Of a stretch of DNA of 62,547 nucleotides, positions 30,522 through 44,403 are shown piece by piece. The stretch is from a virus (Duplodnaviria; Caudoviricetes): positions 1 to 62,547 of IMG/VR virus record IMGVR_UViG_3300028585_000005; one strand, given 5' to 3'. A program made the translations under genes and the position numbers. The notes under the pieces were generated by a model. That model was given only the letters and a program-made list of their open reading frames with translations. It made no database searches and was not told where the DNA came from. The number at the start of each line of letters is the position of its first letter. The first letter of the stretch is position 1.

Positions 30522-33500
30522 CTACTCTTTCCGGGTGAGCTCGACCTGGATGTCGGCGATCCACCCCATGTTCGACTCGCCGCTGCCCTGCGGGAACTCT
30601 GCGGTCACGACGTAGGGTACCCCACACGTCAGCTCGGGCCAGTTGACCGGGCCTCCCGTCGAGGAGATGACGTTCTGGTCCGCGGGGATGGGAGCGTTCG
30701 CCTGGATCTGCGCAGTGGCCGAGCGAGTCACGCCGTCGAGCACGAAGGTCGTGTCCAGGGGGATGTAGGTGATCAGCATCTCCCCGCAGTAGCTCTCGGG
30801 GTCGACGTCCGCCGGGGCGTACCCGAAGGGGTTGGCGTAGAAGCGGAGCCGGAGGTTGCGCACGCTGGCCCCGGTGATCGTCCGCACCGTGACCGTCGGC
30901 ACAGCGAGCGCCCACGTCTCAACCAGGTCGGCAGGGATCTGCGCCCGACCGCGGGTCCAGACCTGCGTCTCAGGGAAGATCGCCCCGACGACCGGCGGCT
31001 TCGGCGGGGTGGGCTGCGCCGGAAGCGTCGGGTCGACCAGGCTCCGTGCTCCGATCTTCGTGCGCTCCGTGCGGACCGACGCCGAGTTGTTGCTCGTGCT
31101 CAGCCAGCTGTAGCTGTAGGTCGGAGTCTCGAGCATCGACCCGTGGAAGAAGTCGGGGTCGGTTGGGAAGGTGCCGCGGGTGAGGAAGAGCGCGGTGTAC
31201 TCGTAGTAGTCACCGGCGGCGGCGCTGGTGGAGGCGGAGCCGAATCGGACGGTTCCAGACAGAACGCCCTGAGAGTTCTGGGTCGTGATCGAGAGCTTCG
31301 TCCACACCCCCTTCTTGACGGTGATGGTGTTCGTGACGTCGGGAAGGATGCCGATGTTGTCTTCGAGCAAAGCGCTGATGAACATCGAGCGATCGGTCGA
31401 GGCGCGCACCCACACGGAGGCGTGAAAACCTGGCACGGTCGTTTCCGTGAACGACGACTGCGCGACCTGATCGTCGCCCGCTGTTGCCGTAGAGCGAGTG
31501 ATCCGGCGCAGCCGGGTGCCGAGCTGGCTGAGGCCCGGGATGCGCAGGTAGACGTCGCTGACGACGGAGCCGACAGAGTTGGCAGGGACGGGGGAGTAGG
31601 TGCTGCTGATGTTGATGGGGTTGGCGGCGTAGTTTCGCGAGACAAGCTGGGGCGAGGCGTAGAGCCCCAGGCCTCGAAGCCACCACCGCTCGTCCATCTC
31701 CGCCTTGATGCGACGACCGAGCATGGCCGGGTTCTCGGCGACGAGCAGCATCGAGAAGCGCACAGCGACGCCGCCACTGACTCGCATCCGCTCGATCTCG
31801 GTGGGCCCCTCGACGACGGAGACGCCGTGGAAGCTGCGCTGGTAGGGGTCGAGCTGCTCGTCCATGGTGATCTCGGTGAGCGGGACCCAGGTGAACTGAG
31901 TCGAAGGCAGGCGGCCCTGGACGGCGCGCAGGAAGGGCCGGGCTCGGCCATCCTCATGCGAGACGTAGAGCCCGCCCTGCCAGGTCGTCTTCGACGGCGA
32001 GGCGTAGGGCGTGCTCGTCCAGCGGGTCGAATACTCCTGCTTGATCCCGAGGTCGGCCGCCAGGTTCAGCAGGTCCGGCCGCGGTGCGATGACCGAGTCG
32101 CCGTCGAAGTAGTCGTAGACCACGGAGGCGTTCTCGACGAGCATCTGATCGAGATCCACCCGGCCTTTCGCGACGACGCGCAGTCGCACGCTGCGGCCGA
32201 ACTGGGTCACGAGCGAGATCCGCTCCCAGACCTCGCCGCCAACGAAGGTGCGCGTGGCGAGCACGGTGCCGTCATCGGTCGAGACCATCGAGGCGGTGAT
32301 CTCGGCGGACTCCCGGGAGCGGACGGCGAGCGAGGCGACCATGGGGCCGTAGACGCCGACGACTGGCGAGACTTCGAGGGTCGACGCCGTGCGCGTGCCG
32401 GAGATGAGCCTGCTCGCGCTGCTCGCATCGCCCAGCAGGTAGAACGCTTCGCCCGTCTGGGTCGCAGTGCTGGCCGTGGCTCCCGAGAAGTACGGCGTGA
32501 GGGCGACCCCGTCGTCCTGCGCGTAGAGCCAGTCGTCGAGGTAGAACCCGTCGGTCACGCCGTCGCGCCCCGCGACGGTCGCCTGCAGGTAGGCGCGCGT
32601 GCTGGCCGTCCCGGCCGGCGCGGTCGCCTGCAAGCTCACGTCGACAGCCGGGGCCACGCCCGTGGGCAGCACGGCGGTCGACGCCATCGAGCCGTCGAAG
32701 TAGTCGCCGGTGTCGCCGACCATGAGGCGTCGCGCGTCGAACGTGTCGCCGACCGCTCGCGCCCCCAAGCCCGTGCCCACATAGACGAGCATGGTCACGG
32801 CCCTGGCGGGTGCCGTGACGCTGACCTGGTGCCGGGTGAAGGTGGCCGCGTTTGTGGCCGCCGTGGTCGTGAACGGGGTGATCGACAGGTAGGTGCCGTC
32901 GCGGTCGTACCAGTACGCGAAGATGCTCATCGGCTGCGCGGTGGAGGAACGCAGTTCGATCGAGAACGGGACGACCTCGCCGGGGAAGACGCGCATCGCC
33001 CACTGCCCGGCCGTAGCGCCGATGACGATGCGCTGAGCGTTCGACCCGACGGTGGCGTCGGTGATCGTGGCGCGTACGAAGTCGGCCCCGAGGCTGACGT
33101 CGGCACGAGAGCCGCCGATCGCCGAGAGGCTCGTGCCGTTGACCGGGTTCGGGGCGCGGTTAACGCGCCGCCCGGCCGAGTCGTCGCGCACCGACGGGGA
33201 GCCGTTGACGGGGCCGAGCCATGCGTAGCGGACACCGCTGATCGGGACGATGGTGTCGCCGTCGAGGTAGGCCCCGAGGACGCCGGCCTCCTCGATCATC
33301 AGGCCGGTCGCCTTGACCACCGTGCCGGCCACACCGGTCATGTAGATGTCCTGCCAGGCCGCCATGTACGCGGCCCCGGCGGGCGCGGTGACCGTGCTGG
33401 CGAGCCGAACCCAGGTGTTCGCACCGAAGACGGGCACGTTGGGCCCGAAGACGTTGTAAATCAGCGCGCCGGACTGGTCGAAGAACGCGACCGTCATCCG

Positions 33501-35684
33501 TCGCGCCCCGCCGTCGCCGCCGTAGTTCACGGGCACGTTCGACCAGAAGTACGACGACAGGGTGAAGACCTGGCCGGGCTTCACCGGCATGCCGCCGTTG
33601 CCGTTGTTCATGTGCGAGAACGCGACGTCGAACAGGTTGCTCGACCCGCCATTGTCGACGACGGTCCAGACCTTCTCGAGGTAGCTCGTCAGGTGCGGGG
33701 TCGGGCCGTCGGACTGTGCGGTGCGCGCGGTGATCGTGCCGTTGTTGTTGCCGCCGCCGAACCACCGGGCCTGGAATCCGCGCAGGGCGGTGCCGATCGA
33801 GGTGAGCAGGGCCCGCGGGTCGGTGGCCAGGTTCGAGCGCTTCGTCTCGCCCTGGTAGCGCTCCGACGTCGACGCGCCAGCAGCGCCCGTCCACCGGTGG
33901 AAGGTGCCGATTGGTGCCGTCTTGACCCTGGTCGAGTAGGCGGTCTCGGTTCCGATCTGCGCCGACGTCGAGTCGAAGAATCGGCACTGCATCTCGTAGG
34001 TGCGAGCGCCGAAGCTCGTCCACGACGGACGCACTCGGGCGCGCTGCTGCCACTTCTGGTCGGGGGCCGCGGGCGACGACGTGCCCGCCGGGCTCGCGTA
34101 GTACGGGCTGAGCGCCGTTGCGTAGTCCTGCTCGACCAGGGCCGCGTCAGCCGTCACGCCGAGTCCCACGCCGGACGCGGGCGACACCTTCGCTCGGTAG
34201 GCGTTGACCGGCATCGGCCCCGCCGGGTTCATGTCGGGGTTGGGGACCGTGTTCGTGACGACCTTGGCGCCCGTCTGTCGGGTCGACGGCGACCCGTTCG
34301 GCGTGCCGGTCCAGGCGTGGATCACCTTGCCCGGGAAGACCCCGTCGTAGGCATCGGAGCCGTCGAAGTAGTCCCCGAGGACCGCGCCGCCCTCGAGCAG
34401 CGCGCCCCCGACCGACATCGACGCGACGGGTGCCGAGATCCGCACGACGTAGCTCTTGCCGACGGAGAGCTGCGCGACGAGCCGGGTGTAGCCCGCGTTC
34501 GCGTCGACAGCCTGTCGGGCGACGGAGGTCTGAGCTCCGAAGTTGTCGGTGACGGTGATCTCAACCTGGGTCGAGCTGCTGGTCGCGACGTAAACCGACA
34601 GCGTCGACAGCATGGGCGCGCCCGACTCGCGCACGGGGCCCTGGGCCGAGAACTCCGCGTAGAGCGGGGCCTCAAAATCGGTGCGGACGAAGCCGCCATA
34701 GGGCAGCCCGATGGGGCCGCCGTCGGCGACGGCCGTGAACCTGCCGTTGGTGCGCCACGGGGACGCGGCCGAGTCGAGGGTGAAGCGCGGATCGGGCACC
34801 CAGTTAGTGCGGACGGACGAGCCATCGGTCGGAGACATCCGGGCGTGCGCGCCACCATCGACACCGAAGGCGGTCTCGCGCGAGAGGGCAGCGGTTCCGG
34901 CGGTCACGCTGACGCCGTTCAGTCCGGCGGTGAAGCTCGGGTTGCTCAGCAGGTTCGTCCGCTGCAGCAGCAGCGGCTTCTCCACCTCCTCGAGGACGTC
35001 GCCCGAGTCGATGTCGAGCAAGCCCCACGACAGCTCGACGCCGTCGCCCTGCCCCGCGTTCACGGCCCACGCGCCACGGATCGGCTGCTCGATGTCACGG
35101 GTAGCGGCGAAGCGGTAGATGAGATCGGCGCCAGGGCTGATGGAGCCGGTGTTGACGGCTTGCGCCTTCGCCCAGTCGATTCGCTTCGAGTAGAGGCTGG
35201 CGCAGACCTCGGGCTTGTCCAGGAAGAAGGTCAGGTCGGACATGCCGCAGGCTTCGTGCATCCCGCACTGGTCGCCCTCCGCGATCTTGCGCAGCCACGA
35301 CAGACCAGCCTCGGCGCCGAGGTCATCCTCGGCCACGACCATGCCGGTGTAGCGCATCTCGCGCGTGGCCGCCCGGCCGTCGCCGACGGTGCCGCCCTCG
35401 ACGATGGACTCGGTAACCTCGGCCGTGCGCGTCGAGTCGCTGACGCCCTTGATGCTGATCGGCAGGATGCCCAGGAACTTGTGGGTCGCAGGGTCGCGCT
35501 CGTCCACCCACGGTGCGTCGTCCAGCAGCGGCGACGTGTAGGGCTCCTCCTCGAGGGCGACGTGCAGCCCGTCGTGCAGCGGGTCCTGGCGCAGGGCGTG
35601 GAAGCCCCGGTTGCGGGCGTAGCTCTGCACCCGGTCCGCGTTGCCGATCTCGATGCCACCGAGGGACAAGAAGCCTTCGTACAA
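30522..35684 (-). CDS. Large minor tail protein (distal-tail-like, with inserted carbohydrate-binding-like modules)
   Basis: Follows the tape measure; repeated RTN-x-x-x-NP, YFDG and W-x-G-x-x-x-x-S-x-S module borders. Confidence 0.85.
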   Translation of the reverse strand: MYEGFLSLGGIEIGNADRVQSYARNRGFHALRQDPLHDGLHVALEEEPYTSPLLDDAPWVDERDPATHKFLGILPISIKGVSDSTRTAEVTESIVEGGTVGDGRAATREMRYTGMVVAEDDLGAEAGLSWLRKIAEGDQCGMHEACGMSDLTFFLDKPEVCASLYSKRIDWAKAQAVNTGSISPGADLIYRFAATRDIEQPIRGAWAVNAGQGDGVELSWGLLDIDSGDVLEEVEKPLLLQRTNLLSNPSFTAGLNGVSVTAGTAALSRETAFGVDGGAHARMSPTDGSSVRTNWVPDPRFTLDSAASPWRTNGRFTAVADGGPIGLPYGGFVRTDFEAPLYAEFSAQGPVRESGAPMLSTLSVYVATSSSTQVEITVTDNFGAQTSVARQAVDANAGYTRLVAQLSVGKSYVVRISAPVASMSVGGALLEGGAVLGDYFDGSDAYDGVFPGKVIHAWTGTPNGSPSTRQTGAKVVTNTVPNPDMNPAGPMPVNAYRAKVSPASGVGLGVTADAALVEQDYATALSPYYASPAGTSSPAAPDQKWQQRARVRPSWTSFGARTYEMQCRFFDSTSAQIGTETAYSTRVKTAPIGTFHRWTGAAGASTSERYQGETKRSNLATDPRALLTSIGTALRGFQARWFGGGNNNGTITARTAQSDGPTPHLTSYLEKVWTVVDNGGSSNLFDVAFSHMNNGNGGMPVKPGQVFTLSSYFWSNVPVNYGGDGGARRMTVAFFDQSGALIYNVFGPNVPVFGANTWVRLASTVTAPAGAAYMAAWQDIYMTGVAGTVVKATGLMIEEAGVLGAYLDGDTIVPISGVRYAWLGPVNGSPSVRDDSAGRRVNRAPNPVNGTSLSAIGGSRADVSLGADFVRATITDATVGSNAQRIVIGATAGQWAMRVFPGEVVPFSIELRSSTAQPMSIFAYWYDRDGTYLSITPFTTTAATNAATFTRHQVSVTAPARAVTMLVYVGTGLGARAVGDTFDARRLMVGDTGDYFDGSMASTAVLPTGVAPAVDVSLQATAPAGTASTRAYLQATVAGRDGVTDGFYLDDWLYAQDDGVALTPYFSGATASTATQTGEAFYLLGDASSASRLISGTRTASTLEVSPVVGVYGPMVASLAVRSRESAEITASMVSTDDGTVLATRTFVGGEVWERISLVTQFGRSVRLRVVAKGRVDLDQMLVENASVVYDYFDGDSVIAPRPDLLNLAADLGIKQEYSTRWTSTPYASPSKTTWQGGLYVSHEDGRARPFLRAVQGRLPSTQFTWVPLTEITMDEQLDPYQRSFHGVSVVEGPTEIERMRVSGGVAVRFSMLLVAENPAMLGRRIKAEMDERWWLRGLGLYASPQLVSRNYAANPINISSTYSPVPANSVGSVVSDVYLRIPGLSQLGTRLRRITRSTATAGDDQVAQSSFTETTVPGFHASVWVRASTDRSMFISALLEDNIGILPDVTNTITVKKGVWTKLSITTQNSQGVLSGTVRFGSASTSAAAGDYYEYTALFLTRGTFPTDPDFFHGSMLETPTYSYSWLSTSNNSASVRTERTKIGARSLVDPTLPAQPTPPKPPVVGAIFPETQVWTRGRAQIPADLVETWALAVPTVTVRTITGASVRNLRLRFYANPFGYAPADVDPESYCGEMLITYIPLDTTFVLDGVTRSATAQIQANAPIPADQNVISSTGGPVNWPELTCGVPYVVTAEFPQGSGESNMGWIADIQVELTRKE

Positions 35685-35693
35685 GGGTGCCTC

Positions 35694-38600
35694 CTAGGGC
35701 AGGTTCGCGACGAGCTCGTCGAGCACCGCCGCACCGACATTACCGGGGTCCTTCGCGACAGTGACGACGCGCACGGCGCCCTCTTCGATGATGACCTGGC
35801 GTTCGATGCGCTGACCGTCGCCCGAACCGCCGCCTGCCAGCCCCTGTGCGTAGGCGCTGAGGTCGCGCACGGCGGGGTCGACCTGCGACAGGGGACGGTT
35901 CAGCGGCACGACCGCCTCGGGCCCGGCCTCGGCGATGATGCGCGCCTGGCCGCCGCCGAAGACGCCACCCACGGCGGTCTGCGGCAGGCCCGTGATCTGA
36001 GGCGCTCGGATCGCAGGGATCGAGGGCAGCTTCACCCGGATGCCGGAGAAGTCGAGCAGGCTCGAGATGACGCCCTTGAGTCCCGACAGGGCGCCGGTGA
36101 TCAAGCCGGGCAGCGCGCGCCACGCCGCGACGATGCCGTCGCGGGCCGCGGATGCGATGCCGATCGCGGGCTGGAAGAACGCACCGATCGTCTGGCCGAT
36201 GCCCGACATGAAGCCGCGGATCGTCGTCGGCGGGTTCGCCCAGATCTGACCGACCTGGGAGGCGATCTGACCGACCGGGCCGGGCACCTGCTGGAAGATC
36301 GCGATCAGGCTCTGACCGACCTGGCCCATGAAACCGCGGATCGTCGTCGGCGGCGTGGCCCAGATCTGGCCGATCTGGTTCGCGACGCCCTGCACCGGGG
36401 CAGGTGCCTGCTGGAACCAACCAGCAATGCTGGTTCCGATCGTGCCGAGGAAGCCGCGGATCGTGTTGGGCGGGTCGGCGAAGAGCTGGCCGAGCGTGCT
36501 CGCGACGGTCTGCACCGGGGCAGGGGCCTGCTCGAACCAGCCCGCGATCTTCGTGCCGATGTCGCCGAGGGACAGCTGCACGCCGGGCGCGACGGTGCCG
36601 AACGAGTTCGTCATGTTGCTGGCCGACGTGTCGGCCGCTTCCTCGCCGGGGGAGAACAGGTCGGTGACGAGCGCGCCGAAGTCGAGGCCGGCGAACCAGT
36701 CCGTGATCCCGGTCCAGAAGTCCTCGAGTGCCTGGTTGACGCCCTCGTTGAGATCGGAGGCCCAGCTGTCGTCGGGCGCGAAGAGGTCCATGAACCACTC
36801 GGACACGTCGTCCGCCCGGTCGGCGAACCAGTCGCCGATGCCCGTCCAGAAGTCCTCGAGCGCCTGGTTGACGGTGTCATTCAGGTCGGAGGACCAGCTG
36901 TCGTCGGGACCGAAGGCGTCGCCGAGCCACGTGCTGATGTCGTCGCCGATGCCAGCGAACCAGTCGCCGACCCCGGACCAGAAGTCCTCGAGGGCCTGAT
37001 TGACCGTGTCGTTCAGGTCGGCGGCCCAGCCGTCGTCGGTCTTGAACAGGTCCTTGAACCAGCTCGAGATGTCCTTCCCTCGCGCGACGAACCAGTCGCC
37101 TACGCTCTTCCAGAAGTCCTCGAGCGCCTGGTTGACCGTGTCGTCGAGGTCGTCTGCCCACTTGCCGGCGTCGCGGCCCCAGTTCTGCATGGCGATGGTC
37201 GCCTTGGCGAGGGCGGTGCCGAGCCAGTCGAAGAAGCCGAAGTTGCTGGTCTTGCCCCAGGCCATCAGCTTGTCCATCCACGTCGAGTCCGACGCGAACA
37301 GCTCGTCCATGTCCTCCCAGTTGGTCGTCAAGAGCTCGATGGCGAGGGCGATGCCGGTGATGCCGTCGGCGACCGCGGGGGTCAGCAGGTCGAGGACGGG
37401 CTTGAGGGCGGGGAGCACGTCTGCCAGCGCGACCGCGATGTCGGCGAGGGCGCCCGCGGCGTCGACCAGCGCGGGCGAGAGCTCGGGCAGCACGTCCTCG
37501 ACGAGGTCGAGGAGCGCCGAGAGCAGCCCGTCAGGACCGATGAGCGCGGGGATTAGGTCGTCGGCAATGGCGTCGACGACGGGTGCCAGGGCGGGCGAGA
37601 GCTTCTCGAACAGGCCCTTGACGTCGCCGAGGGCGCTCTTGAGGTTGCCGTTCAGCGAGGTCGCGAGGTTGTCCAGAGCGGGCTTGAGCGGGGAGAGGAT
37701 GTCGGCGACGGTCTGCAGCGCGGCGACGAACAGGCCGATCGGGTCGAGCTTGCCGATGGTGTCGAGGAAGCCGCCGACCGCGGGCATCAGGTCGGCCAGG
37801 CCCTCGAGGGCGTTGTTGAGCTTCGTGATCGTGTCGGTCGTGACCAGGCCAGCGAGCGTGTCGCCGACGGCGCCGAGCAGGCGCGCGACCTTGGGCCCGA
37901 CGCGCTCTGCCGTGGAGAACCACTGCAGGATGCGCTCGCGCCCCTCCTCGCTCTCCGACCAGCGAGCGAACTCGCCCGTGATGTCCTCGATGTAGCCGAA
38001 GAACTTCTGCGCCGTGGGGATGCCGGTGACGAAGACCGAGCCGATGCCCGCGCCAAGGCTGATGAGGGTGTTGAACAGGCTGTCGAGGATCGGCTCGAAG
38101 CCGGTGAGCAGCCGGTCCATGTCCTCGAGCGCCTTGGGCGTAGTGAGCTTCGTGGCGAGGCTGCGGAAGAAGCGGTTGCCAGCGTCGGCCGCGAGACCGA
38201 ACCCCTTCGAGAGGACGGGCAGCAGCTTGCCCCCGAGGTTCTCGATGTCGGGCGCGAGGTCAGCGAAGAGCCGCCCCTGGATCTCCTTCTTGATCGAGAC
38301 GAAGCCCTTGCCGAGCTCGCGCAGCGCCAGGGCAGCCGGGCGCGCGGCAGGCTCGATGTCCTCGATGGGGCCGGTGATCCCCTTGATGCCCGCGATGAGC
38401 ACGCCGACGCCGGTCACGGCCGCGAGGGCGCCGATGCCGAGCGCGGCCAGCCCGCCTCCGGCCGCCGAGCCGAGCACGGCGATGTCGGTGCCGAGGGCGG
38501 CGATGATCGCGCCGATGAAGATGATGTCCTGCAGCTGGTCCGGCAGCTGGTTGAAGTTGAAGTCGCGCTTGAAGCGCCGGCCGGAGCCGCTGGCCTTGTC

Positions 38601-39290
38601 GACCTTCTTCGACAGCCGGTCCATGCTGTTGCCGACCTCGTCGATGTCGCGGGTCTTGCCGCTGAACGAGTTCAGGAACCGCTCGCCGATCGGCGTCGCG
38701 CCGACCCACGACTGACGGAGGCGGTCGACGAGCGTGCGCGAGGTGCGCAGCCGATCCTCGGACTCGGCCTCGGAACGGAGCCGCCGGTCGAGCGCGAGGT
38801 TCAAGTCGCGCTCAGTCGAGATGCGCTCCTGCACGGCGCGGTTCGCGTCGAGGTTGCCCTTCTCGAAGGCGTCGAGCTGACCGTTGAGGTTGTCGTACAT
38901 CTGCGTGCTCAGGCCGCCGGCCTCGTTGAGCTCGCGCATCTTGTCGCGCAGGTCGCCCAGCGCGGTGTCGGCGTCGCCGGTCTGCTTGACGAAGTTGCTC
39001 AGGCCGTTCGTCTTGCCGAAGATGTCGGCCAGCTCGTCGGCGATGCCCTGCTTGTTGCGGCGGATGACGCCCTGCATGGAGTCGGTGAAGCTGATGCCGG
39101 CCAGCTCGCCGTTCTTCCGCATGTCGTCGCGGAGCTCCTTGGAGAGCGACGTCAGCTCCTTGGAGAAGCCCTCGTTGAACCCCTCGCCAGCGAGTCCGCC
39201 AGCCTCGGCGCCCATCTTGCGCGCCTTGCCCGGAAGGCCACGTCCATCGAAGTCGACGAGGAAGTCGACCTCTCCGATGTTGCGTCCCAC
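35694..39290 (-). CDS. Tape measure protein
   Basis: 1198 aa, Ala/Gly/Leu-rich, periodic W/F repeats (VNQALEDFW x4, TIRGF x3); follows the chaperones. Confidence 0.92.
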   Translation of the reverse strand: MGRNIGEVDFLVDFDGRGLPGKARKMGAEAGGLAGEGFNEGFSKELTSLSKELRDDMRKNGELAGISFTDSMQGVIRRNKQGIADELADIFGKTNGLSNFVKQTGDADTALGDLRDKMRELNEAGGLSTQMYDNLNGQLDAFEKGNLDANRAVQERISTERDLNLALDRRLRSEAESEDRLRTSRTLVDRLRQSWVGATPIGERFLNSFSGKTRDIDEVGNSMDRLSKKVDKASGSGRRFKRDFNFNQLPDQLQDIIFIGAIIAALGTDIAVLGSAAGGGLAALGIGALAAVTGVGVLIAGIKGITGPIEDIEPAARPAALALRELGKGFVSIKKEIQGRLFADLAPDIENLGGKLLPVLSKGFGLAADAGNRFFRSLATKLTTPKALEDMDRLLTGFEPILDSLFNTLISLGAGIGSVFVTGIPTAQKFFGYIEDITGEFARWSESEEGRERILQWFSTAERVGPKVARLLGAVGDTLAGLVTTDTITKLNNALEGLADLMPAVGGFLDTIGKLDPIGLFVAALQTVADILSPLKPALDNLATSLNGNLKSALGDVKGLFEKLSPALAPVVDAIADDLIPALIGPDGLLSALLDLVEDVLPELSPALVDAAGALADIAVALADVLPALKPVLDLLTPAVADGITGIALAIELLTTNWEDMDELFASDSTWMDKLMAWGKTSNFGFFDWLGTALAKATIAMQNWGRDAGKWADDLDDTVNQALEDFWKSVGDWFVARGKDISSWFKDLFKTDDGWAADLNDTVNQALEDFWSGVGDWFAGIGDDISTWLGDAFGPDDSWSSDLNDTVNQALEDFWTGIGDWFADRADDVSEWFMDLFAPDDSWASDLNEGVNQALEDFWTGITDWFAGLDFGALVTDLFSPGEEAADTSASNMTNSFGTVAPGVQLSLGDIGTKIAGWFEQAPAPVQTVASTLGQLFADPPNTIRGFLGTIGTSIAGWFQQAPAPVQGVANQIGQIWATPPTTIRGFMGQVGQSLIAIFQQVPGPVGQIASQVGQIWANPPTTIRGFMSGIGQTIGAFFQPAIGIASAARDGIVAAWRALPGLITGALSGLKGVISSLLDFSGIRVKLPSIPAIRAPQITGLPQTAVGGVFGGGQARIIAEAGPEAVVPLNRPLSQVDPAVRDLSAYAQGLAGGGSGDGQRIERQVIIEEGAVRVVTVAKDPGNVGAAVLDELVANLP
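36419..36435. repeat. 17-bp palindrome copy 18, inside the tape measure gene (TSIAG)
   Basis: AACCAGCAATGCTGGTT. Confidence 0.9.
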
Positions 39291-39308
39291 GTGGCCCTCC
39301 TGGGCTTC

Positions 39309-39604
39309 CTAGCCGGTGGTCTTCTGCTTGAAGGCCATCAGCATTTCCATCTCGGCTTCGATCAGCGCCTTCTCCACCTTGCCCGCCCGGGTGATCCCGG
39401 GGAGGGGGGCGAGGAGGTCCAGCTTCCAGGCGTCGAGCTCTTCGGGCTTGAGTCTCTCAGTCACCCACGCGTGGATCGTGTTGCAGAACCGGCGAGGCGA
39501 CAGGGTCATCGGGCTGGGGAGCCCTTTCAGCGCGAAACTCGCGTCGATCCCCTCCCAGTTGACTGCCGCGATCCAGTAGAGCCGGACCGCGGCTGGGTAG
39601 GGCG
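39309..39604 (-). CDS. Tail assembly chaperone, frameshifted C-terminal part
   Basis: The -1 frame reads PYPAAVRLYWIAAVNWEGIDA...; lies between the chaperone and the tape measure. Confidence 0.6.
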
Positions 39605-39949
39605 CTCGGTCACCTGCTCGCAGAGCCAGCCGACGATCTCCTGCATGTCGTCGATCTCGAGCGGGTCCTTCGGGTCGGCCAGCCGGTGCCGCAGGACGTT
39701 CCAGGAGGTCGTGTCGAGGACGTTGCGGAGGAACTCAGTGAGCCCCTCCATCGTGTCCATGCCCGAGCTGTCGCGGCCCATGGCCGACATCAGCAGGGCG
39801 ACCTGCTCCTGCGTGGGCGGCCCCGGGGCGCGGAAGCTGTCGCCCTTCTTGTTGATGCCCTCGCCGTTGATCTTGAACGTGATCGGCTCGACGACCTCGT
39901 CGTCGCGCTCCTCTCGGATCGCGCTCTCGAAGTTCTTCATCTGTGCCAT
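39527..39949 (-). CDS. Tail assembly chaperone
   Basis: GGAG RBS; MAQMKNF start; RLADPKDPL...ERPT followed by a Ser-rich tail. Confidence 0.8.
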   Translation of the reverse strand: MAQMKNFESAIREERDDEVVEPITFKINGEGINKKGDSFRAPGPPTQEQVALLMSAMGRDSSGMDTMEGLTEFLRNVLDTTSWNVLRHRLADPKDPLEIDDMQEIVGWLCEQVTERPTQPRSGSTGSRQSTGRGSTRVSR

Positions 39950-39975
39950 GGTGACTCCATCCGGGGTGAGGGGAC

Positions 39976-40386
39976 CTAGATCAGGCCCCGCCGCAAGAGT
40001 ACAGCCCGGGCTGCCTCCTCCATCCACGGATTCGCGCGCTGACCAGCAACGCTCTTGACGACGCGGGGGCCGTAGCCGCCGCCGCGCGGGAGGCTCAGGC
40101 GGTCGCCCCGCTTCGGGAGGATCGGACCCGTCGTGCCGCTGTGCACCCAGGAGGCGTGCTCGGCGCTGGCCGAGATCCGGCCCGACGTCCGGTAGCGCCC
40201 GACCTTGAGCACGCCGTTGTTCTTGTGCGACGCCTTGAGACGGCCGGACCGGGCGGGCGCGCGCTCAACGGCTGCGGCGAAGATCTCCCGGTTGAGCGTG
40301 CTGCCGAACCGGCCGACCTCGCCGTAGCGATCGAAGAGGGCGCTGATCTGCTGGTCGTAGACCTTCACCCGGACGAGGCCGGCCAC
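39976..40386 (-). CDS. HK97 gp10-like neck/tail-completion protein
   Basis: APARSGRLKAS...HASWVHSGT...GQRANPWM. Confidence 0.75.
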   Translation of the reverse strand: MAGLVRVKVYDQQISALFDRYGEVGRFGSTLNREIFAAAVERAPARSGRLKASHKNNGVLKVGRYRTSGRISASAEHASWVHSGTTGPILPKRGDRLSLPRGGGYGPRVVKSVAGQRANPWMEEAARAVLLRRGLI

Positions 40387-40389
40387 GAG

Positions 40390-40914
40390 CTACGCCGACT
40401 TGAGGCGCTGCACCGTGACGGTCCACGACCCCGAGGTGATGTCGCCGAGGGTGAGCGTGGCGTACTGGCCGAGGAGGAACTGGCGCTGCGAGAAGCACCG
40501 GCAGATCGCGAGGCGCAGGGCGGTCATGTCGGCCAGCTGCAGGGCCGTCGTCGCCCGCCGCTCCTCAACACTGAGCGGCACGCCGCGGTCGTGGACGAGC
40601 AGCTTGCGCGCGATGCCGAGCTCGATCGTGTAGGCGAGCGACTCGTTCGGGTAGCGCAGCGCGCGCGTGGCGGGCTCGGGAAAGCTGTCGAGCTCGACGT
40701 CGGTCGGGTAGCCCGCGACGAGCCGGGCCCACAGCTTGCCAGGGCAGCCCTCCTCGTCGGGGTCCTCGCAGAAGCCGTCGAAGACTGCCTCTTGGCCGAA
40801 GGCCAGCTCGGGGTGGGCGACCGGGATCTGGCGCTCCTCGAGCACGTCCACGGCACAGTCGAGCAGGTCCTCCATCAGAGGCAGTGCGGTGGTGTCGTCG
40901 ATCATGGGTGCCAT
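40390..40914 (-). CDS. Tail terminator-like protein
   Basis: Position and size; YTIELGIAR motif. Confidence 0.6.
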   Translation of the reverse strand: MAPMIDDTTALPLMEDLLDCAVDVLEERQIPVAHPELAFGQEAVFDGFCEDPDEEGCPGKLWARLVAGYPTDVELDSFPEPATRALRYPNESLAYTIELGIARKLLVHDRGVPLSVEERRATTALQLADMTALRLAICRCFSQRQFLLGQYATLTLGDITSGSWTVTVQRLKSA

Positions 40915-40918
40915 CCTC

Positions 40919-42511
40919 TCAGAACGCTTGCGAGACGTCGCGGACGCCAGCGACTTGCAGCGCCCGGGCGCCCTTTTTGACCGCGCCCTTCGCGTCGTCC
41001 TGCGTCTTCACGATGTGCCCGATGACGCGCTTGCCGGTCGCGCCTCCCGCGATCCGCACCGTCTCGGCCCAGACCGCCTCGGTGGCGTTGAACTCCATGC
41101 CGAGGTAGTCCCACTTCGCCGCCGTCGCGCTGAGCAGCGGCTCCTGCGTGGCGGTCCCGTCCGACTTGAACCCGGTGATCGCCTCCGTGTACGCGTAGCC
41201 CCATGCCTTGCAGCCGATGGCGTGGAACTCGTCGGCGATGGCGGTGCCCGTGTGGTAGAACTTGCCGAGCACCCGCCGCTTGTAGTCGGCGATCTGCTGG
41301 ATGCGCGCGTAGAGCACCTGCCGGTTCGCGGTGCTGAGCAGCTTTGGGTCGAACATCAGCGTGTGCGTGCCCGACCAGCGCTCGATGAACTCGTCGATGC
41401 TCATGTAGCGCGACGTCGTGTAGCGCGGGTCGCCCCGGTTGGGGAGATCCTGCACCAGGCCCTGCACCTGCGACCAGGTCAGGTCCGTCGTCTTCACACC
41501 GGCCGCGACCGACGAGCTCGTCCTCGAGTACGTGCTGTCGTGGATGCCGAACAGCACACCGTCGGACGTGATGCCGACGCTGAACTCGAGCACGTCGAGG
41601 TGGTTGATCGCGCAGTTCAGGTAGCCCTCGGGCGAGTGCTCCTGGTAGTCGGCCGACCCGCCGCGGTGGCCCATCGTCCACACCCGGTTGATCCGGTCGA
41701 GGTCGGGGACGAAGGTGCCGCCGTGCACGAACTCGATCTTGCTCAGCGACACCTCCTTGCCGGCGGAGTCGATCGCCGTCAGGCCGACCGGGACGGCGTT
41801 GCCCTGCTCGTTGACGACCATCGCCGACAGCGGGGTGACCGGCACGACGGTGTCGGGCACGGGCTCGATGACGATCATGATCGACCCGCGGTTGCCCGAC
41901 GAGTTGGCCGTGCCGTCGTCCTTGAGCCACGTCGACACGGCATCGCCAGACGCCCCCGGCGTCGCCATCTCGCGGTGCGCGAGCAGCACCGAGTTGATCG
42001 GGCTGCCCGTGTGGATGTACCAGCCGTCCTTGACGAACGGGGAGGCGACCGAGATCTTGTCGTAGGTCTCGGTCGCGGCCGTCGCCTCGCCCTGGATGCT
42101 GACGACGAGGCTGTTCGGCACGGTCGTCGTGACGCCCGGCGTGTTCTGCACGTTGCCGGTCGAGGTGCGCAGGTACGCGCCGACGGCGCCCGCCTTGCCG
42201 GCCCCGTAGAACAGGTAGCCCATCGCCGTGCCGGTGGTGTTCATCGTGAAGGTGACACTGTTGGCGTCGCCCGTTGCCCGGACGTGCTGGTACACGGCCA
42301 GGTAGCGGGTGCCCATCGCTGCCGGCGCGAGCACGACCGACCACCCCGACGGCGGGTTGGGGATGCTGGTCGCCGAGACGAAGACGATCGCCACGGTCAT
42401 CAGGTCGCCGACGACAGGCGCGGTCGAGTCGGTCGGCACCGCGACGACGAGCGACGACGTGCCGCCGTTGCTCGAACCGAGCTTGCCGCGGATCGTGGGG
42501 ACGGTTGTCAC
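40919..42511 (-). CDS. Virion-associated glycerophosphodiester phosphodiesterase (GDPD) fusion
   Basis: N-terminal beta-rich domain; C-terminal GHRGG...EHS...LEFSV...TSDGV...HD. Confidence 0.8.
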   Translation of the reverse strand: MTTVPTIRGKLGSSNGGTSSLVVAVPTDSTAPVVGDLMTVAIVFVSATSIPNPPSGWSVVLAPAAMGTRYLAVYQHVRATGDANSVTFTMNTTGTAMGYLFYGAGKAGAVGAYLRTSTGNVQNTPGVTTTVPNSLVVSIQGEATAATETYDKISVASPFVKDGWYIHTGSPINSVLLAHREMATPGASGDAVSTWLKDDGTANSSGNRGSIMIVIEPVPDTVVPVTPLSAMVVNEQGNAVPVGLTAIDSAGKEVSLSKIEFVHGGTFVPDLDRINRVWTMGHRGGSADYQEHSPEGYLNCAINHLDVLEFSVGITSDGVLFGIHDSTYSRTSSSVAAGVKTTDLTWSQVQGLVQDLPNRGDPRYTTSRYMSIDEFIERWSGTHTLMFDPKLLSTANRQVLYARIQQIADYKRRVLGKFYHTGTAIADEFHAIGCKAWGYAYTEAITGFKSDGTATQEPLLSATAAKWDYLGMEFNATEAVWAETVRIAGGATGKRVIGHIVKTQDDAKGAVKKGARALQVAGVRDVSQAF

Positions 42512-42825
42512 TGCTGTGCCGGTCGGTAGCCGAGGAGCTGGCCGGGCACGGCGTCAGCCGGAGGCTTGTTGACGCCCGGGTCGAGCAGGCGGAACCCGCC
42601 AGGGGGGCCCTGCGGTCCGGTCGCGCCGGAGTCGCCGGGCTGCAGCGAGGTGTTCGCCTTGGCGAGGGACGCCTGCGACGCCGCCGACAGCGAGAGGGTG
42701 ACGTCGGCCGCGAGGGTGCCACCGCCGGTGAGGCCCGTGCCCGCCGTGATCTTGCGGCCACGGACGGTCTTGAACTCCGTAGCCACCCGCACGAAGCCGC
42801 TGAGCACGGCGGACACGAGGCTCAT
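42508..42825 (-). CDS. Head/neck fibre-like protein with a short collagen-like repeat
   Basis: AGTGLTGGGTL; GDSGATGPQGPPG. Confidence 0.7.
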   Translation of the reverse strand: MSLVSAVLSGFVRVATEFKTVRGRKITAGTGLTGGGTLAADVTLSLSAASQASLAKANTSLQPGDSGATGPQGPPGGFRLLDPGVNKPPADAVPGQLLGYRPAQQ

Positions 42826-43355
42826 GCCAGGGCCGCCTCGAAGGCCGCGACGAAGTCGGTCGTGGTGTCGCCGATGTCACTCTTGCCGTAGACGTCGAGG
42901 TTCTTCTGCCCCTGCGCCTTCTGCCCGGCGGTGAGCGACTGGTCGGCATCGAACCGGAGGCGCACCCCGAGCGCCGTGGTGTTCGCCGCGGTGGCGGAGT
43001 CGTTCTCGCCGTCGGTGTCGCGGACGAACTTGATCACCTCGATCAGGCTGTCGAGGTCGGTCGAGAGGGTGCCGCCGAGCACGTCGGCCTTGACCTGCGC
43101 GCCGACCTCGGCGAGGCGCGACTCCGTCTTGCTCGAGCTGTAGACCTTCGTCGTCGACGAGGCGCTGTCGTCGATCGGCGCACCGCCCGACCCGCCGCTC
43201 GGCTTGGCGTTGACCTCGTTGATCGCGTTCACGATCGAGCTCTTGTCCTGGGTCGTCAGGTTCGCGAGCAGACCGGTGACCGCCTTGACGGCCTTGATCT
43301 CGGTCGCGACCCGGGTGAACCCGTTCTGGATGTTGGTGATCAGTGCGTTAGCCAT
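42822..43355 (-). CDS. Head/neck fibre-like protein
   Basis: LTTQDKSSIVNAINEV and YSSSK fibre motifs; N-terminus paralogous to 42508-42825 (GF-x-RVATE-x-K). Confidence 0.75.
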   Translation of the reverse strand: MANALITNIQNGFTRVATEIKAVKAVTGLLANLTTQDKSSIVNAINEVNAKPSGGSGGAPIDDSASSTTKVYSSSKTESRLAEVGAQVKADVLGGTLSTDLDSLIEVIKFVRDTDGENDSATAANTTALGVRLRFDADQSLTAGQKAQGQKNLDVYGKSDIGDTTTDFVAAFEAALA

Positions 43356-43534
43356 CAGGCAAGTCCGTTCTCGAAGATGAGCGCGAACGACGGGGCGTCG
43401 TCGTAGGCGGAGTGGGGGTTCGGGTCTTCCTCGTGCGGCGTGACCGTCGCAGCCTCGATGGCGCCGACCACGCGCTCGGGCGGCAGGAAGGTGTCCTCGT
43501 TGATCGTGACGAAGATCGGTCGCTGGTCGGCCAT
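43355..43534 (-). CDS. Small structural-region protein
   Basis: TGATG overlaps; HSAYDD...IFENGL. Confidence 0.65.
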   Translation of the reverse strand: MADQRPIFVTINEDTFLPPERVVGAIEAATVTPHEEDPNPHSAYDDAPSFALIFENGLA

Positions 43535-44403
43535 CACGGCTCCAATCGGTAGTAGCCCGCGCCCAGCGCGGTGTCGGGCACGAGGTTACCGGGGTAGCCC
43601 GGCGTCGGAGGCGTCGACCCGCGCGACGACGTGACGACGCGGTCCTGGTCCATGGTGTCGATCGAGAAGACGCGGCTCGGCACCTTGAGGCCGTGCGGAT
43701 TCAGGCGGGCGACGTAAGCGTCGACCTCGACGATGCCCGTGGCCTGGCCGGGGGAGAAGGCCGACTGCGCCATCTCGAACGTGACGCCCTGCCGAGTGAC
43801 GGCGGTGACCTGGGAAGGGAGGACGCATCGCTTCCCCTCGAGCAGGGCGAGGTACTCGCGGGCCAGCTTGCCGGCTGCCCAGTCGGCGAGGTTGTCGGGG
43901 GCGGCGCCGTCGAAGTAGGTGACCATGATCGAGCCGAGAGCGCCAGGCTCGGCGTGCGCGCTCGAGGCGAGCGGCCAGGTCTTCCCGTCGACGCGGACGA
44001 GGATGCTGCCGTTCTCGACCCGGTAGGCGGTCGGGCCGAGCACGACGCCGTCGACCTCGACGGCGATCATCCGGGCGACCGTCCCGGGCAGGCGCAGTTC
44101 GGTGGACAGGTCGCAGCGGCAGCCGCTGCGGTGAACGGCGTTGCGCCACTGGCCGTCGATGCCGAGGTAGGGGTGGAAGGGGCCCTGGGCGCCACCCACG
44201 GGCGCGGTGAAGTAGGTGCCGGGGTCACAGGCCGCACGACCGGGCGAGATCTCGAGGGCGCAGAGCGAGAGACGGTAGCCCGTCAGCGTCTGCAGCGTGG
44301 CCCAGGCGAACTCCTCGGCGAGGTCGCGGCGGGCGAGCTCCTCTTCGGTGGCGTCAGCCCAGCTCTTCGAGCCCCAGTGAGTCGTCGGGGGGTAGCAGTT
44401 CAC
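43534..44403 (-). CDS. Head-to-tail adaptor
   Basis: AGGAG RBS and GTG; C-x-LP-x-x-VT-x-VTRQGV and TGIVEVD-x-x-V-x-x-LNP motifs of cluster-B-like adaptors. Confidence 0.8.
   Translation of the reverse strand: MNCYPPTTHWGSKSWADATEEELARRDLAEEFAWATLQTLTGYRLSLCALEISPGRAACDPGTYFTAPVGGAQGPFHPYLGIDGQWRNAVHRSGCRCDLSTELRLPGTVARMIAVEVDGVVLGPTAYRVENGSILVRVDGKTWPLASSAHAEPGALGSIMVTYFDGAAPDNLADWAAGKLAREYLALLEGKRCVLPSQVTAVTRQGVTFEMAQSAFSPGQATGIVEVDAYVARLNPHGLKVPSRVFSIDTMDQDRVVTSSRGSTPPTPGYPGNLVPDTALGAGYYRLEP

Follow-up and report, generated by a model that had tools for sequence, protein, structure and literature searches.

Why would a phage write a perfect palindrome into the middle of its tape measure gene, at the expense of its own codon preferences, and what could read such a site? 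The question arises from the window analyzed here, the whole 62,547-nucleotide stretch of the viral record, which constitutes a complete phage genome (62.5 kb) of high GC content and actinobacterial type. The phage reads as lytic, and no integrase or repressor families were found among its 94 proteins with Pfam and PHROGs, or among the 59 of these that were scanned with NCBIfam. Within the tape measure gene, assigned by PHROG matches, positions 36419-36435 read AACCAGCAATGCTGGTT.

This site is one member of a genome-wide set. The core of the palindrome, ACCAGCA-N-TGCTGGT, is 15 bp long and invariant, and lies inside a looser 19-bp palindrome of the form Y-G-core-C-R. Across the whole genome, ACCAGCNNNGCTGGT was found in 20 exact copies and 1 copy with a single mismatch (Table 1); 100 shuffles gave a mean of 0.26 copies and a maximum of 2, and the reversed pattern, used as a control, gave 0 matches. 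There was no intermediate class, as the only other matches were 3 chance 17-mers at 4 mismatches. The first 13.7 kb of the early arm, a stretch of small non-structural genes, hold 15 of the 21 copies. Outside this genome, the exact 17-mer was found at 15 loci in viral_contigs and at 68 loci in bacterial and archaeal genome_contigs, in a single copy each; the latter number compares with an estimated 69 or so expected by chance, so no host regulon uses the palindrome. Among metagenome_contigs, at least 114 loci carried it, with one exact match apiece among those listed, and 3 loci that had a second site with 2 mismatches were unrelated DNA of 57% GC. Megablast searches against cultured phages returned no match for the region of 30-40 kb, and nothing more than a 73-bp patch for 1-10 kb.

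Table 1. Copies of the palindrome and other features of the phage genome referred to in the text.
Position	Strand	Feature	Context
467..495	+	Putative early promoter	TTGACA-17 nt-TAAGCT; spotted by eye, not flagged by the consensus scan
777..791		Copy, intragenic	Codons 71-75 (TSTAG) of 251-codon ORF 567..1322 (+), the first early gene
1480..1494		Copy, intergenic	One mismatch (last base C); start 1523 lies 28 nt downstream
1840..1854		Copy, intragenic	Codons 7-11 (TSNAG) of 137-codon gene 1822..2235 (+); preceding stop 14 nt upstream
2258..2272		Copy, intragenic	Codons 7-11 (TSIAG) of 172-codon gene 2240..2758 (+)
2758..2772		Copy, intergenic	Left-flank TGA is the stop of gene 2240..2758
2940..2954		Copy, intragenic	Codons 48-52 (TSNAG) of 161-codon gene 2799..3284 (+)
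3296..3310		Copy, intergenic	
3848..3862		Copy, intergenic	Start 3878 lies 15 nt downstream
4675..4689		Copy, intergenic	Stop 3 nt upstream, start 4706 16 nt downstream
5472..5486		Copy, intergenic	
6786..6800		Copy, intergenic	tRNA-like gene 20 nt upstream, start 6817 16 nt downstream
8164..8178		Copy, intragenic	Codon 20 (TSIAG) of 29-codon ORF 8107..8196 (prediction only); start 8193 14 nt downstream
9502..9516		Copy, intergenic	Flank TGA is the stop of gene 9095..9502
11092..11385	+	Candidate binder 1	97-aa ribbon-helix-helix-like protein
11385..11399		Copy, intergenic	Flank TGA is the stop of ribbon-helix-helix-like gene 11092..11385
13644..13658		Copy, intergenic	Start 13683 lies 24 nt downstream
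17928..17942		Copy	Tip of ~18-bp hairpin, between convergent genes
25409..25423		Copy	Junction where both genome arms converge
35694..39290	minus	Tape measure gene	1198 codons
36417..36437	minus	Repeat unit 2	Codons 952-958, GGA ACC AGC ATT GCT GGT TGG (GTSIAGW)
36420..36434		Copy, intragenic	Codons 953-957 (TSIAG) of tape measure gene (minus); 17-bp form 36419-36435
36537..36557	minus	Sister unit 1	Codons 912-918, GGC ACG AAG ATC GCG GGC TGG (GTKIAGW), normal codons; coordinates derived by hand from gene start
44432..44446		Copy	Tip of 14-bp hairpin, past major tail gene, ahead of gene 43534..44403
49021..49035		Copy	Tip of ~18-bp hairpin (G-U pairs included), upstream of major capsid gene
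57104..57790		ParB N-domain protein	Aligns over residues 9-114 only; AGNHRY for AGERRY; no HTH detected
58464..58478		Copy, intergenic	Flank gives TGA stop of gene 58478..58825 (minus)
61657..62118	minus	Candidate binder 2	153-aa RepL-like winged-helix protein, first gene of minus-strand arm

The copies were placed relative to gene calls made in this analysis, which were trained on GC3 and codon usage. The upstream GTG starts that place copies 1840 and 2258 inside genes are backed by high GC3 downstream and by the lack of any later in-frame start for at least 88 nt. By these gene calls, the distance to a start codon was 14-16 nt for 4 of the 21 copies and 14-28 nt for 7, and the remaining copies lay 37-72 nt from a start, within ORFs, or at operon ends. 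Scans for sigma-70-like promoter consensus sequences detected none near any copy, making an operator of the classical, promoter-bound kind less likely. The initial annotation favored a roadblock, loading or structural role over a simple operator; the data fit a roadblock on double-stranded DNA, an RNA hairpin or another DNA role alike. The copies do not fit intrinsic terminators either, as there was no T-run on the transcribed strand; only copy 44432 was flagged as being followed by a T-run, on the plus strand, which is antisense to the local genes. The leftmost contig from RNA libraries begins at 512, downstream of the putative early promoter, and parts of the early arm had no RNA-library cover.

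The tape measure gene provides an internal control for the cost of writing the site. It contains 4 tandem units of ~40 aa near its C-terminus, and the unit carrying the palindrome differs from sister unit 1 by 5 synonymous codon changes and a K>S replacement, with no indel. The contrast drawn earlier between GGA, ATT, GCT and GGT in one unit and GGC, ATC, GCG and GGC in the other was thereby confirmed. In the training genes, ATT accounts for 1.4% of Ile codons, GCT for 5.6% of Ala codons, and GGT and GGA for 8.1% and 4.2% of Gly codons, respectively; the product of the training-gene shares of its codons gives the string ACC AGC ATT GCT GGT a probability of ~1e-5 given the peptide TSIAG. Codons ending in A or T make up 71 of the 1198 codons of the gene, against 4 of the 7 codons 952-958 (binomial P = 3.7e-4). 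Rare codons were present at every intragenic copy, and all 5 TS.AG pentapeptides in proteins of at least 60 aa are encoded by the palindrome, where amino-acid composition predicts 0.84. A single tape measure orthologue was found, which is 68% identical and has GTTIASY at the site without an indel, suggesting that the tape-measure copy was created by point substitutions or, less simply, was lost in the relative. This favors substitution over insertion for this copy, which is not an old, conserved feature. As the one orthologue found lacks it, that lineage at least can do without the copy. Searches with the tape measure protein returned no relative in viral_contigs or metagenome_contigs, and homologues in the fetched loci were too distant for their codons to be compared.

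All 6 intragenic copies are framed ACC AGC ANT GCT GGT and read T-S-x-A-G, as initially annotated. The pattern itself therefore held in our own gene calls, but the need for a special reason behind it did not, as opportunity counts and the TGA described below make it mostly ordinary. We counted where in the proteome the core would fit if up to 1 or up to 2 residues were replaced. TSxAG had 9 and 165 such positions, PAxLV had 4 and 126, and QxCW had 0 and 5, suggesting that the frame requiring Cys and Trp is practically closed at the protein level. Relative to PAxLV, finding 6 of 6 copies in TSxAG has a probability of about 0.03-0.1, which is marginal. When the extended palindrome has T at position -9, its PAxLV frame contains a TGA, and 4 genes stop exactly there. 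Two rules were rejected: a pure codon model for the frame, under which QxCW is as probable as TSxAG, and a universal preference for the symmetric frame, which is contradicted by the 20 intragenic copies of phage Corndog, split 11, 6, and 3 over the frames.

Relatives of the early genes offered a second view of what is being conserved. In the DNA relatives X3 and X4 of genes 1822 and 2240, the N-terminal copies keep both arms of the palindrome, while flanking codons differ, one codon is lost, and the free center base flips, exchanging Asn and Ile; copy 1840 was kept in X3 and copy 2258 in both X3 and X4, with the center base flipped. The preservation of the arms amid changing flanks and centers supports, at the level of these sequences, selection on the DNA rather than on the peptide. 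Together with the rare codons and the comparison of sister units, this upholds the earlier proposal that the site is selected as nucleic acid. At the peptide level, TSTAG of gene 567..1322 was present in 4 of 5 orthologues and TSNAG of gene 2799..3284 in 2 of 2; the orthologues that keep them (P0004-P0007 and P0010-P0011) are known as proteins, and a search of viral_contigs with P0010 gave no match. In the most divergent orthologue of gene 567, the peptide is missing and the protein is shorter by 5 aa at this place. Structure models of the 2 proteins put TSTAG and TSNAG in coil, to which we attach little weight, as the mean pLDDT is 57 and 50, respectively. Three joints in the relatives' contigs (1828>6782, 2157>3288, and 2276>2755) were considered as recombination at the motif and rejected, as their short sides are 23-26 letters; we read them as a relative's own copy that was aligned onto another copy.

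Short sites repeated in many copies have several precedents. Stoperators of Cluster A mycobacteriophages are many near-identical sites spread genome-wide, some of them intragenic, whose target is the elongating polymerase and not the promoter; they are asymmetric, oriented with transcription, and recognized by the immunity repressor that a temperate phage encodes. This asymmetry was not found here, as the core is a perfect palindrome whose center base (9 A, 10 T, 2 C) shows no strand preference, and neither repressor nor integrase was found among the 94 proteins. REP elements are short GC-rich palindromes located after stops within operons, which can stabilize upstream mRNA, but they lie outside genes, are imperfect, and go together with RAYT transposases, whereas the copies described here are exact, 6 of them are intragenic, and no RAYT was found.

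The closer match is with the lineage-specific multi-copy inverted repeats of lytic actinophages, a class to which the element belongs. In Cluster EG (Hyperion, Squash, and OneinaGillian), an 18-bp inverted repeat, GATCAACCNNGGTTGATC, has been described in 8-10 copies at the right genome end, located 14-22 bp upstream of start codons, with exceptions at site #9 of Hyperion and at an additional OneinaGillian site (PMC7302621). These phages resemble the present one in being lytic, in having genomes of ~62 kb with a short terminal repeat, a MuF/protease-type fusion gene, and a major tail gene that precedes the connector genes, and in carrying many copies of an invariant palindrome among small early-end genes, here in part in short gaps before their starts. 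They differ in the sequence of the repeat and in its center (2 nt, against 1 nt here); moreover, the Cluster EG copies are reported as start-associated, whereas of the 21 copies here 6 lie in ORFs, 4 supply stops, and 3 form the tips of long hairpins. With the capsids of Cluster EG and Kithara, the capsid protein shares 40-47% identity (~40% for Cluster EG). For Cluster O (Corndog), 34 invariant 17-bp repeats with dyad symmetry, TGTTCGGNNNCCGAACA, have been described, about one-third of them coding; they are not linked to promoters, and the authors predicted that a dimeric protein binds them; stoperators are mentioned there as well (PMC4351075). Corndog is likewise lytic, has a protein with a ParB-like domain, and has copies that become denser toward the early end, but neither the phage nor its repeat is related to those described here, the repeat has a 3-nt center, and its intragenic copies use all 3 frames, where only one is used here. 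In Curtobacterium phage Kithara, the closest cultured relative (syntenic over the structural arm, with proteins 31-59% identical; tblastn matches at 31-54% identity run from terminase to minor tail genes), we found a 16-bp palindrome, GTTCAGTGCACTGAAC, in 13 exact and 2 near copies. The right-arm copies abut ribosome-binding sites, and 4 copies of the palindrome lie inside annotated genes, 3 of these reading F-S-A-L-N and 1 another frame (determined by hand from the annotation); the sequence is different and its length is even. Ten loci of metagenomic relatives each carried a palindrome of their own, in at least 4 copies.

What these phages share is the layout. The gap between copies widens with distance from the early end in this phage (Spearman rho 0.93, P 4e-9), most steeply in Kithara (rho 0.97, P 1e-8), and also in Corndog (rho 0.77, P 1e-7) and in Hyperion (rho 0.72, P 0.02), for the right 31.8 kb only, in which we counted 11 copies of the EG repeat. 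Gaps in the late arm are more even than random (CV 0.34, P = 0.007, in a test picked post hoc). The tape-measure copy halves a site-free gap that would otherwise measure 19 kb, and the region of 25.4-44.4 kb holds several intergenic gaps able to house a site; lack of room thus fails to explain the placement of this copy in coding DNA.

Our main reading, to which we assign a probability of about 0.5, is that the palindrome is a phage-specific cis-acting site, likely read by a phage-encoded, dimeric, sequence-specific binder that acts after transcription initiation and not at promoters. Binding, the identity of the binder, and the effect of binding are what we infer from the pattern. Sites in the early arm lie at module boundaries, just past stops and just before ribosome-binding sites, and split this arm of ~25 kb into blocks of 1, 1, 1, 1, 1, 2, 2, 2, 1, 3, 3, 3, 5, 9, and 15 genes; binding there would halt or partition transcription as at a stoperator, but symmetrically. 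The few, widely spaced copies of the late arm would have the same action. Where non-coding space went unused, point substitutions would have written the site into coding DNA, with rare codons as the price, and such sites may succeed only in the frame that gives the small, easily reached peptide T-S-x-A-G, in loops or termini. The symmetry counts against this reading, in that a symmetric site cannot act directionally like the stoperators of Cluster A, and so does the failure to find a repressor or integrase. Two phage proteins are candidates. The ribbon-helix-helix-like protein matched Pfam RHH_1 with E = 0.0024, below the curated cut-off, and grouped in the Atlas with RHH/ParG/CopG-like clusters on both features (0.93) and structure (TM 0.7-0.8). 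The second candidate, the RepL-like winged-helix protein, is an orthologue of Kithara gp1, annotated as 'HTH DNA binding protein'. Both are put forward on sub-threshold or feature-based matches, and sequence searches of the PDB returned nothing usable for either.

The element could instead work as an RNA signal, which we consider possible but doubtful: a hairpin with a 7-8-bp stem and a 3-nt loop that punctuates polycistronic transcripts as a processing site, decay barrier, or translational control element, read by a phage RNA-binding protein or nuclease, with the copies at operon ends capping terminator or stabilizer hairpins. Copies lie 3-27 nt past stop codons, those 14-28 nt before starts abut the ribosome-binding site, and the palindromes of Kithara and Cluster EG likewise abut ribosome-binding sites or starts. 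The region is present in RNA libraries, and the motif hairpin was intact in most of the 21 folded contexts, although 11385, 25409, and 36420 folded otherwise or partly. At 17928, 44432, and 49021, 3 of the 6 copies from 17928 onward, the stems reach 14-18 bp at operon ends, where chance would give an estimated ~0.06 such sites among 21; these look like RNA or cruciform structures, which a plain double-stranded DNA site does not need. The one-mismatch copy 1480 is compensated by 3 additional outer pairs, and the flanks at ±8, in transcript sense, form 15 G-C, 2 A-T (both double changes), 4 G-T (G-U), and 0 A-C pairs. At ±9, however, the commonest combination, C...A (10 of 21), is unpaired in sense RNA, so the asymmetry between G-U and A-C, suggestive at ±8 and contradicted at ±9, was rejected as proof of RNA pairing. 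The 7 core pairs show zero compensatory changes across the 21 copies, which is the signature of sequence recognition and not of structure alone. RNA-library contigs, which carry no end or abundance information, cross copies 777 and 2258 (records 13, 21; 16, 23), suggesting that these are not obligatory points of cleavage or termination. The rarity of T-runs also speaks against an RNA signal, Rfam matched no family at any copy, and it is hard to see what purpose a hairpin would serve midway through the tape measure ORF.

A role at the DNA level outside transcription, in which the scattered copies would serve replication, recombination, condensation, or the protection of ends, seems unlikely. 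Examples would be binding by a RepL-like initiator, loading of a ParB-like protein, or a Chi-like attenuation of an exonuclease that enters at the early end. The drop in copy density from the physical genome end, roughly geometric in 4 phages with unrelated palindromes, and the even spacing of late-arm copies (4.3-11 kb) would suit such a role, as would the genes available: the phage encodes RepL-like winged-helix, ParB N-terminal-domain, Rad52-like, and Cas4-like exonuclease proteins, and Corndog likewise encodes a ParB-like protein. But the density gradient tracks the direction of early transcription equally well, so that the 2 readings are confounded, and this model does not account for how closely the copies are tied to stop codons and ribosome-binding sites. 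The ParB-like protein, moreover, aligned only over its N-terminal domain, with AGNHRY in place of the AGERRY of Spo0J. A host nuclease signal is also unlikely, since the motif differs among phages of related hosts; the arm GCTGGT resembles the E. coli Chi sequence, and as the palindrome differs by phage lineage, this likeness was dismissed as coincidence. Least probable of all, and by our estimate very improbable, is that the repeat is selfish or neutral, having multiplied through insertion or gene conversion without a function for the phage. The extreme uniformity of the copies and the absence of degenerate ones would fit, as would 2 HNH genes and a recombination module in the phage, and the shortened distant orthologue of gene 567. 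Such a repeat is nonetheless hard to reconcile with the tape-measure copy, which aligns without an indel to both its sister units and the orthologue, with copies that persist at orthologous places despite the divergence of their flanks, and with an ordered placement relative to genes; neither RAYT nor any other transposase was found among the 94 proteins.

For more than a decade, such repeats have been reported from several clusters of actinophages without an assigned function. It is conceivable, though we hold this only tentatively, that several unrelated lytic actinophage lineages share a control system in which a single factor of the phage recognizes an invariant palindrome of its own, set out at geometrically widening spacing from the early genome end and forced into coding DNA where needed. 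If so, the layout would encode a polar program, such as a stepwise timer or insulator of the early operon, at the level of DNA or of a nascent RNA hairpin, or else the protection or processing of the first-entering DNA end, and the palindrome of this phage would be its clearest example, with its exact copies, shared stops, hairpin-capped operon ends, and recent tape-measure copy. This genome contributes a codon-level demonstration of selection on nucleic acid, by a paralogous control within one gene and by residue flips in relatives; a simple rule for writing the site into proteins, in which amino-acid accessibility and stop-codon content set the frame; and a widening of spacing from the early end that is common to 4 phages whose palindromes differ and that suggests a polar process. 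As Kithara and the Cluster EG phages are cultured and engineerable, the function is directly testable. The copies also bear on annotation, as gene callers may extend ORFs across such sites, of which the N-terminal extension of P0011 is an example.

The palindrome that occupies 36419-36435, within the tape measure gene, as AACCAGCAATGCTGGTT has a core, ACCAGCNNNGCTGGT, with 20 exact copies in the window and one further copy with a single mismatch; 100 shuffles gave a mean of 0.26 and a maximum of 2, and the pattern read backwards, used as a control, does not occur in the window. An alignment of the 21 copies in transcript orientation, each named here by its first core base, shows no variation at -7 to -1 and +1 to +6 and a single exception at +7, while the center base varies (9 A, 10 T, 2 C). 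Outside the core, -8 is nearly always G (19 of the 21), +8 is either C (15) or T (6), and ±9 and ±10 are looser, giving an overall consensus of Y-G-core-C-R. No degenerate copies were seen: relaxing the 17-mer search to 4 mismatches added just 3 chance sites, all of them at that limit. The exact 17-mer gave single, chance-level matches only in viral and bacterial collections and, among the matches listed, in metagenomic ones, and no relatives sharing the motif were found at the DNA level in the searchable sequence collections (for metagenomic data, among the matches listed). The palindrome is thus apparently private to the present phage.

The complete virus record measures 62,547 bp, has a GC content of 67-72%, and carries a direct terminal repeat of 126 bp (1-126 identical to 62422-62547). 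Genes, called from GC3 together with a codon model trained on the genome itself, fall into two arms (see table). The DNA-metabolism genes of the plus-strand arm encode an SSB, a RuvC-like resolvase, a Rad52-like protein, and a Cas4-like exonuclease, along with two HNH genes; further along the minus-strand arm lie genes for the major tail protein, the tape measure, a 1720-aa tail protein, and an endolysin. Family searches of the window's proteins found no integrase or repressor. By capsid protein, the nearest cultured relatives are the Curtobacterium phages Kithara and Sunfish (44-47% identity) and the Cluster EG Microbacterium phages (approximately 40%), and the structural arm is syntenic with that of Kithara over its entire length.

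Intragenic palindrome copies, stop codons supplied by palindrome flanks, and the two arms of the genome
Feature	Position	Strand	Codon or content
Intragenic copy	777		codon 71 of 251
Intragenic copy	1840		codon 7 of 137
Intragenic copy	2258		codon 7 of 172
Intragenic copy	2940		codon 48 of 161
Intragenic copy	8164		codon 20 of a predicted 29-codon ORF
Intragenic copy	36420		codon 953 of 1198
Stop codon from flank of copy 2758	2756-2758		
Stop codon from flank of copy 9502	9500-9502		
Stop codon from flank of copy 11385	11383-11385		
Stop codon from flank of copy 58464	58478-58480	-	
Plus-strand arm	567..25401	+	small genes, mostly of unknown function, and DNA-metabolism genes
Minus-strand arm	62118..25524	-	ParB-N-domain protein, large terminase, portal, MuF/protease-type fusion, major capsid protein

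Six copies lie within called ORFs, and every one is framed ACC AGC ANT GCT GGT, so that independent gene calls reproduce the single TSxAG frame noted in the initial annotation in 6 of 6 cases. Copies 1840 and 2258 are truly translated, since GC3 stays high past the motif in this frame, the next in-frame start is at least 88 nt away, and GAGG/GGAG boxes lie 7-9 nt ahead of the GTG starts. The short predicted ORF around copy 8164 is preceded by a good ribosome-binding site and overlaps the following gene at an ATGA. At another four copies (2758, 9502, 11385, and 58464, the last on the minus strand), all among the seven with T at -9, the flank reads T-G-A, at which the upstream gene stops. Together, the 10 overlaps between genes and motif comprise 6 read through as TSxAG and 4 in the PAxLV frame that end at the motif edge; the third, DQxCWS frame has none.

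A plain codon-frequency model was rejected as an explanation of this preference, as it makes the core equally probable in the xAC CAG CAN TGC TGG and TSxAG frames. Instead, the proteome was searched for sites that could take the core after at most one or at most two residue changes. Besides the 5 real sites, the TSxAG frame has 9 and 165 such positions, respectively, compared with 4 and 126 for PAxLV and 0 and 5 for QxCW. Amino-acid accessibility therefore explains most of the single-frame use, and the Cys-Trp frame is effectively closed. Relative to PAxLV, which runs into TGA whenever -9 is T, our own arithmetic on these counts gives a probability of approximately 0.03-0.1 for 6 of 6. The exclusive frame is thus largely the expected result of an affordable peptide. 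Low-confidence structure models (mean pLDDT 57 and 50) place TSTAG and TSNAG in coil, with which orthologue indels at both places agree. A general one-frame rule was rejected: in Corndog, a Cluster O mycobacteriophage with its own palindrome, annotated genes hold 20 of the 34 copies, distributed 11, 6, and 3 over the three frames. In Kithara, a hand count put three of four intragenic copies, which fall in genes 23, 32, 44, and 54, in one frame.

The codons themselves are costly. Among the training genes, ATT accounts for 1.4% of Ile, GCT for 5.6% of Ala, and GGT and GGA for 8.1% and 4.2% of Gly, and the product of these shares gives a probability of approximately 1e-5 for ACC AGC ATT GCT GGT given TSIAG. 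The tape measure contains four tandem units of approximately 40 aa; unit 1 reads GGC ACG AAG ATC GCG GGC TGG where unit 2, without a gap, reads GGA ACC AGC ATT GCT GGT TGG. Base differences between the two number 7 of 21 within the palindrome segment and 24 of 99 in the remainder, indicating that the units are old and that the change is special in its direction rather than its amount: codons ending in A or T make up 4 of 7 in the unit 2 segment and 71 of 1198 across the gene (P = 3.7e-4). The proposal that the palindrome was written here against codon bias is thereby borne out. In proteins of at least 60 aa, TS.AG peptides occur 5 times, all encoded by the motif, against 0.84 predicted from composition. 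The one tape measure orthologue found in the protein database, P0002, is 68% identical overall and 78% in the repeat region. It aligns ungapped at the site, with G-T-T-I-A-S-Y for G-T-S-I-A-G-W (its unit 1 has G-T-A-I-A-G-Y), and TS.AG was not found anywhere in it. As G-T-T-I-A-S-Y cannot encode the palindrome, the copy was either gained here or lost in the other lineage; the ungapped alignment with both unit 1 and P0002 indicates that either change took place by substitution at variable unit positions rather than by insertion.

Early-gene copies could be followed in more relatives. Five orthologues of gene 567 were found in the protein database: four (P0004-P0007, 83-92% identity) keep P-T-S-T-A-G-W, and the fifth, 67% identical, has H-S-V-G-G-W and is 5 aa shorter at the same spot. 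Both orthologues of gene 2799 (P0010 and P0011, 60-69% identity) keep P-T-S-N-A-G-Q, in P0011 directly after a 1-aa gap. The database ORF of P0011 has 64 aa extra upstream, which pass through the adjacent intergenic palindrome and read it in the TSxAG frame as S-T-S-I-A-G-H-H; this extension, possible because that frame holds no stop codon, is either a genuine fusion or a gene-caller artefact. Two public DNA runs, X3 and X4, contain mosaic relatives of the early arm. An X3 contig matches the window up to 1828, followed by 4 added letters and 23 letters fitting another motif copy, and contigs from both runs match up to 2157, followed by 25 added letters and 26 motif letters. Hand reading of these short contig ends, on which the evidence from these runs for a conserved palindrome rests, gave V-T-G-S-P-T-S-I-A-G-Q (X3) for V-T-A-D-T-P-T-S-N-A-G-H in the gene with copy 1840, and V-T-T-T-T-P-T-S-N-A-G-H (X3 and X4) for V-T-L-T-R-P-T-S-I-A-G-H in that with copy 2258. 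In both genes the arms are intact, while the codons around them differ, the length has changed by one codon, and the altered center base switches the middle residue between Asn and Ile. As the arms are kept while flanks, length, and middle residue vary, the conserved entity looks like a DNA or RNA palindrome rather than a peptide. Along with the rare codons, this supports the suggested selection at the nucleic-acid level, and we consider a functionless repeat very improbable.

The window's element is a new example of a known, functionally unexplained class of actinophage repeats. According to excerpts of the Cluster EG report, an 18-bp inverted repeat is present in these phages in 8-10 copies, located ahead of right-end genes at 14-22 bp from their start codons; the authors describe its function as not known and compare it with the Cluster O repeats (PMC7302621). 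The latter, in excerpts of their description, are 34 invariant 17-bp repeats that are denser at the right end, lie in coding regions in a third of cases, and are not promoter-linked, with a dimeric protein predicted as binder (PMC4351075). A limited literature search found no functional studies of the Cluster EG, Cluster O, or phiC31 repeats. Kithara has a 16-bp palindrome of its own (13 exact and 2 near copies). Among 175 collected loci, a scan of those of at least 3 kb identified 10 (L018/L019, L020, L097, L099, L113, L116, L125, L129, and L152) from metagenomic relatives found through capsid or terminase genes, each with a palindrome of its own that has arms of 6-7 bp and is repeated 4-7 times over 7-22 kb.

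The layout along the genome is also shared. In the early arm, where genes overlap or are tightly packed in blocks, copies sit at the block borders; block size increases from 1 gene to 15 as one moves away from a putative early promoter (467-495), and gaps between copies widen from 0.2-0.7 kb to 11 kb (Spearman rho 0.93). The same gradient is found in Kithara (0.97), Corndog (0.77), and the right arm of the Cluster EG phage Hyperion (0.72), so that spacing widens steadily from the early genome end in four phages with unrelated palindromes. The seven gaps from 13.6 kb on measure 4.3-11.0 kb (CV 0.34), more even than random in a post hoc test (P = 0.007); without the tape-measure copy, 19 kb would separate copies 25409 and 44432. 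Promoter scans predicted no sigma-70-like promoter near any copy.

We give about even odds (roughly 0.5) to a phage-encoded dimer that would bind the palindrome as a duplex and act after transcription initiation. Two encoded proteins resemble DNA binders and are putative candidates: a ribbon-helix-helix-like protein whose stop codon lies within copy 11385, and a RepL-like winged-helix protein orthologous to Kithara gp1, which is also present in two other relatives and has a different putative recognition helix in each. A role of the DNA outside transcription seems improbable to us, more so than one as a hairpin in RNA, itself a doubtful alternative. For an RNA or extruded hairpin speak the predicted folds: across the 21 contexts most keep the motif hairpin whole, with the arms paired elsewhere or only partly at 11385, 25409, and 36420, and hairpins of 14-18 bp are capped by copies 17928 (between convergent genes), 44432 (past the major tail gene), and 49021 (ahead of the capsid gene). 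The ±8 pair speaks for it as well, being in transcript sense G-C in 15 copies, A-T in 2, G-T in 4, and A-C in none. However, none of the seven core pairs shows covariation, and ±9 is mostly a non-pairing C...A (10 of 21 copies). In addition, contigs from two metatranscriptome libraries, X5 and X8, run unbroken through copies 777 and 2258, although such contigs show neither transcript ends nor levels, and the libraries may contain DNA.

The X5 and X8 contigs match the first early genes (512-1331 and 1864-2361) at 99-100% identity; the leftmost begins at 512, approximately 17 nt past the putative -10 box, and contigs terminate at 914 and 918, positions without a motif. A tRNA-like gene at 6690-6766 (+) lies in the 142-nt gap ahead of copy 6786; ARAGORN assigned it a four-base anticodon (caga) and named no amino acid, and it scored 35.9 bits against the Rfam tRNA family (gathering score 29). 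A second short repeat, CATCATGTGT, occurs at 12-21, 56-65, and 444-453, and at 62432-62441 and 62476-62485 in the terminal repeat, with two copies within the 126-bp repeat and one ahead of the putative early promoter, 14 nt from its -35 box. With at most one mismatch it has 6 matches against 1.55 expected, a number reached in 1 of 100 shuffles. Finally, the X3 and X4 relatives differ from the window's early arm by whole-gene indels and replacements (16383-16842, 4939-4945, 477-520, and others), including the clean loss of gene 16386..16841 and an insertion of 184 letters at the 4945/4948 gene junction.
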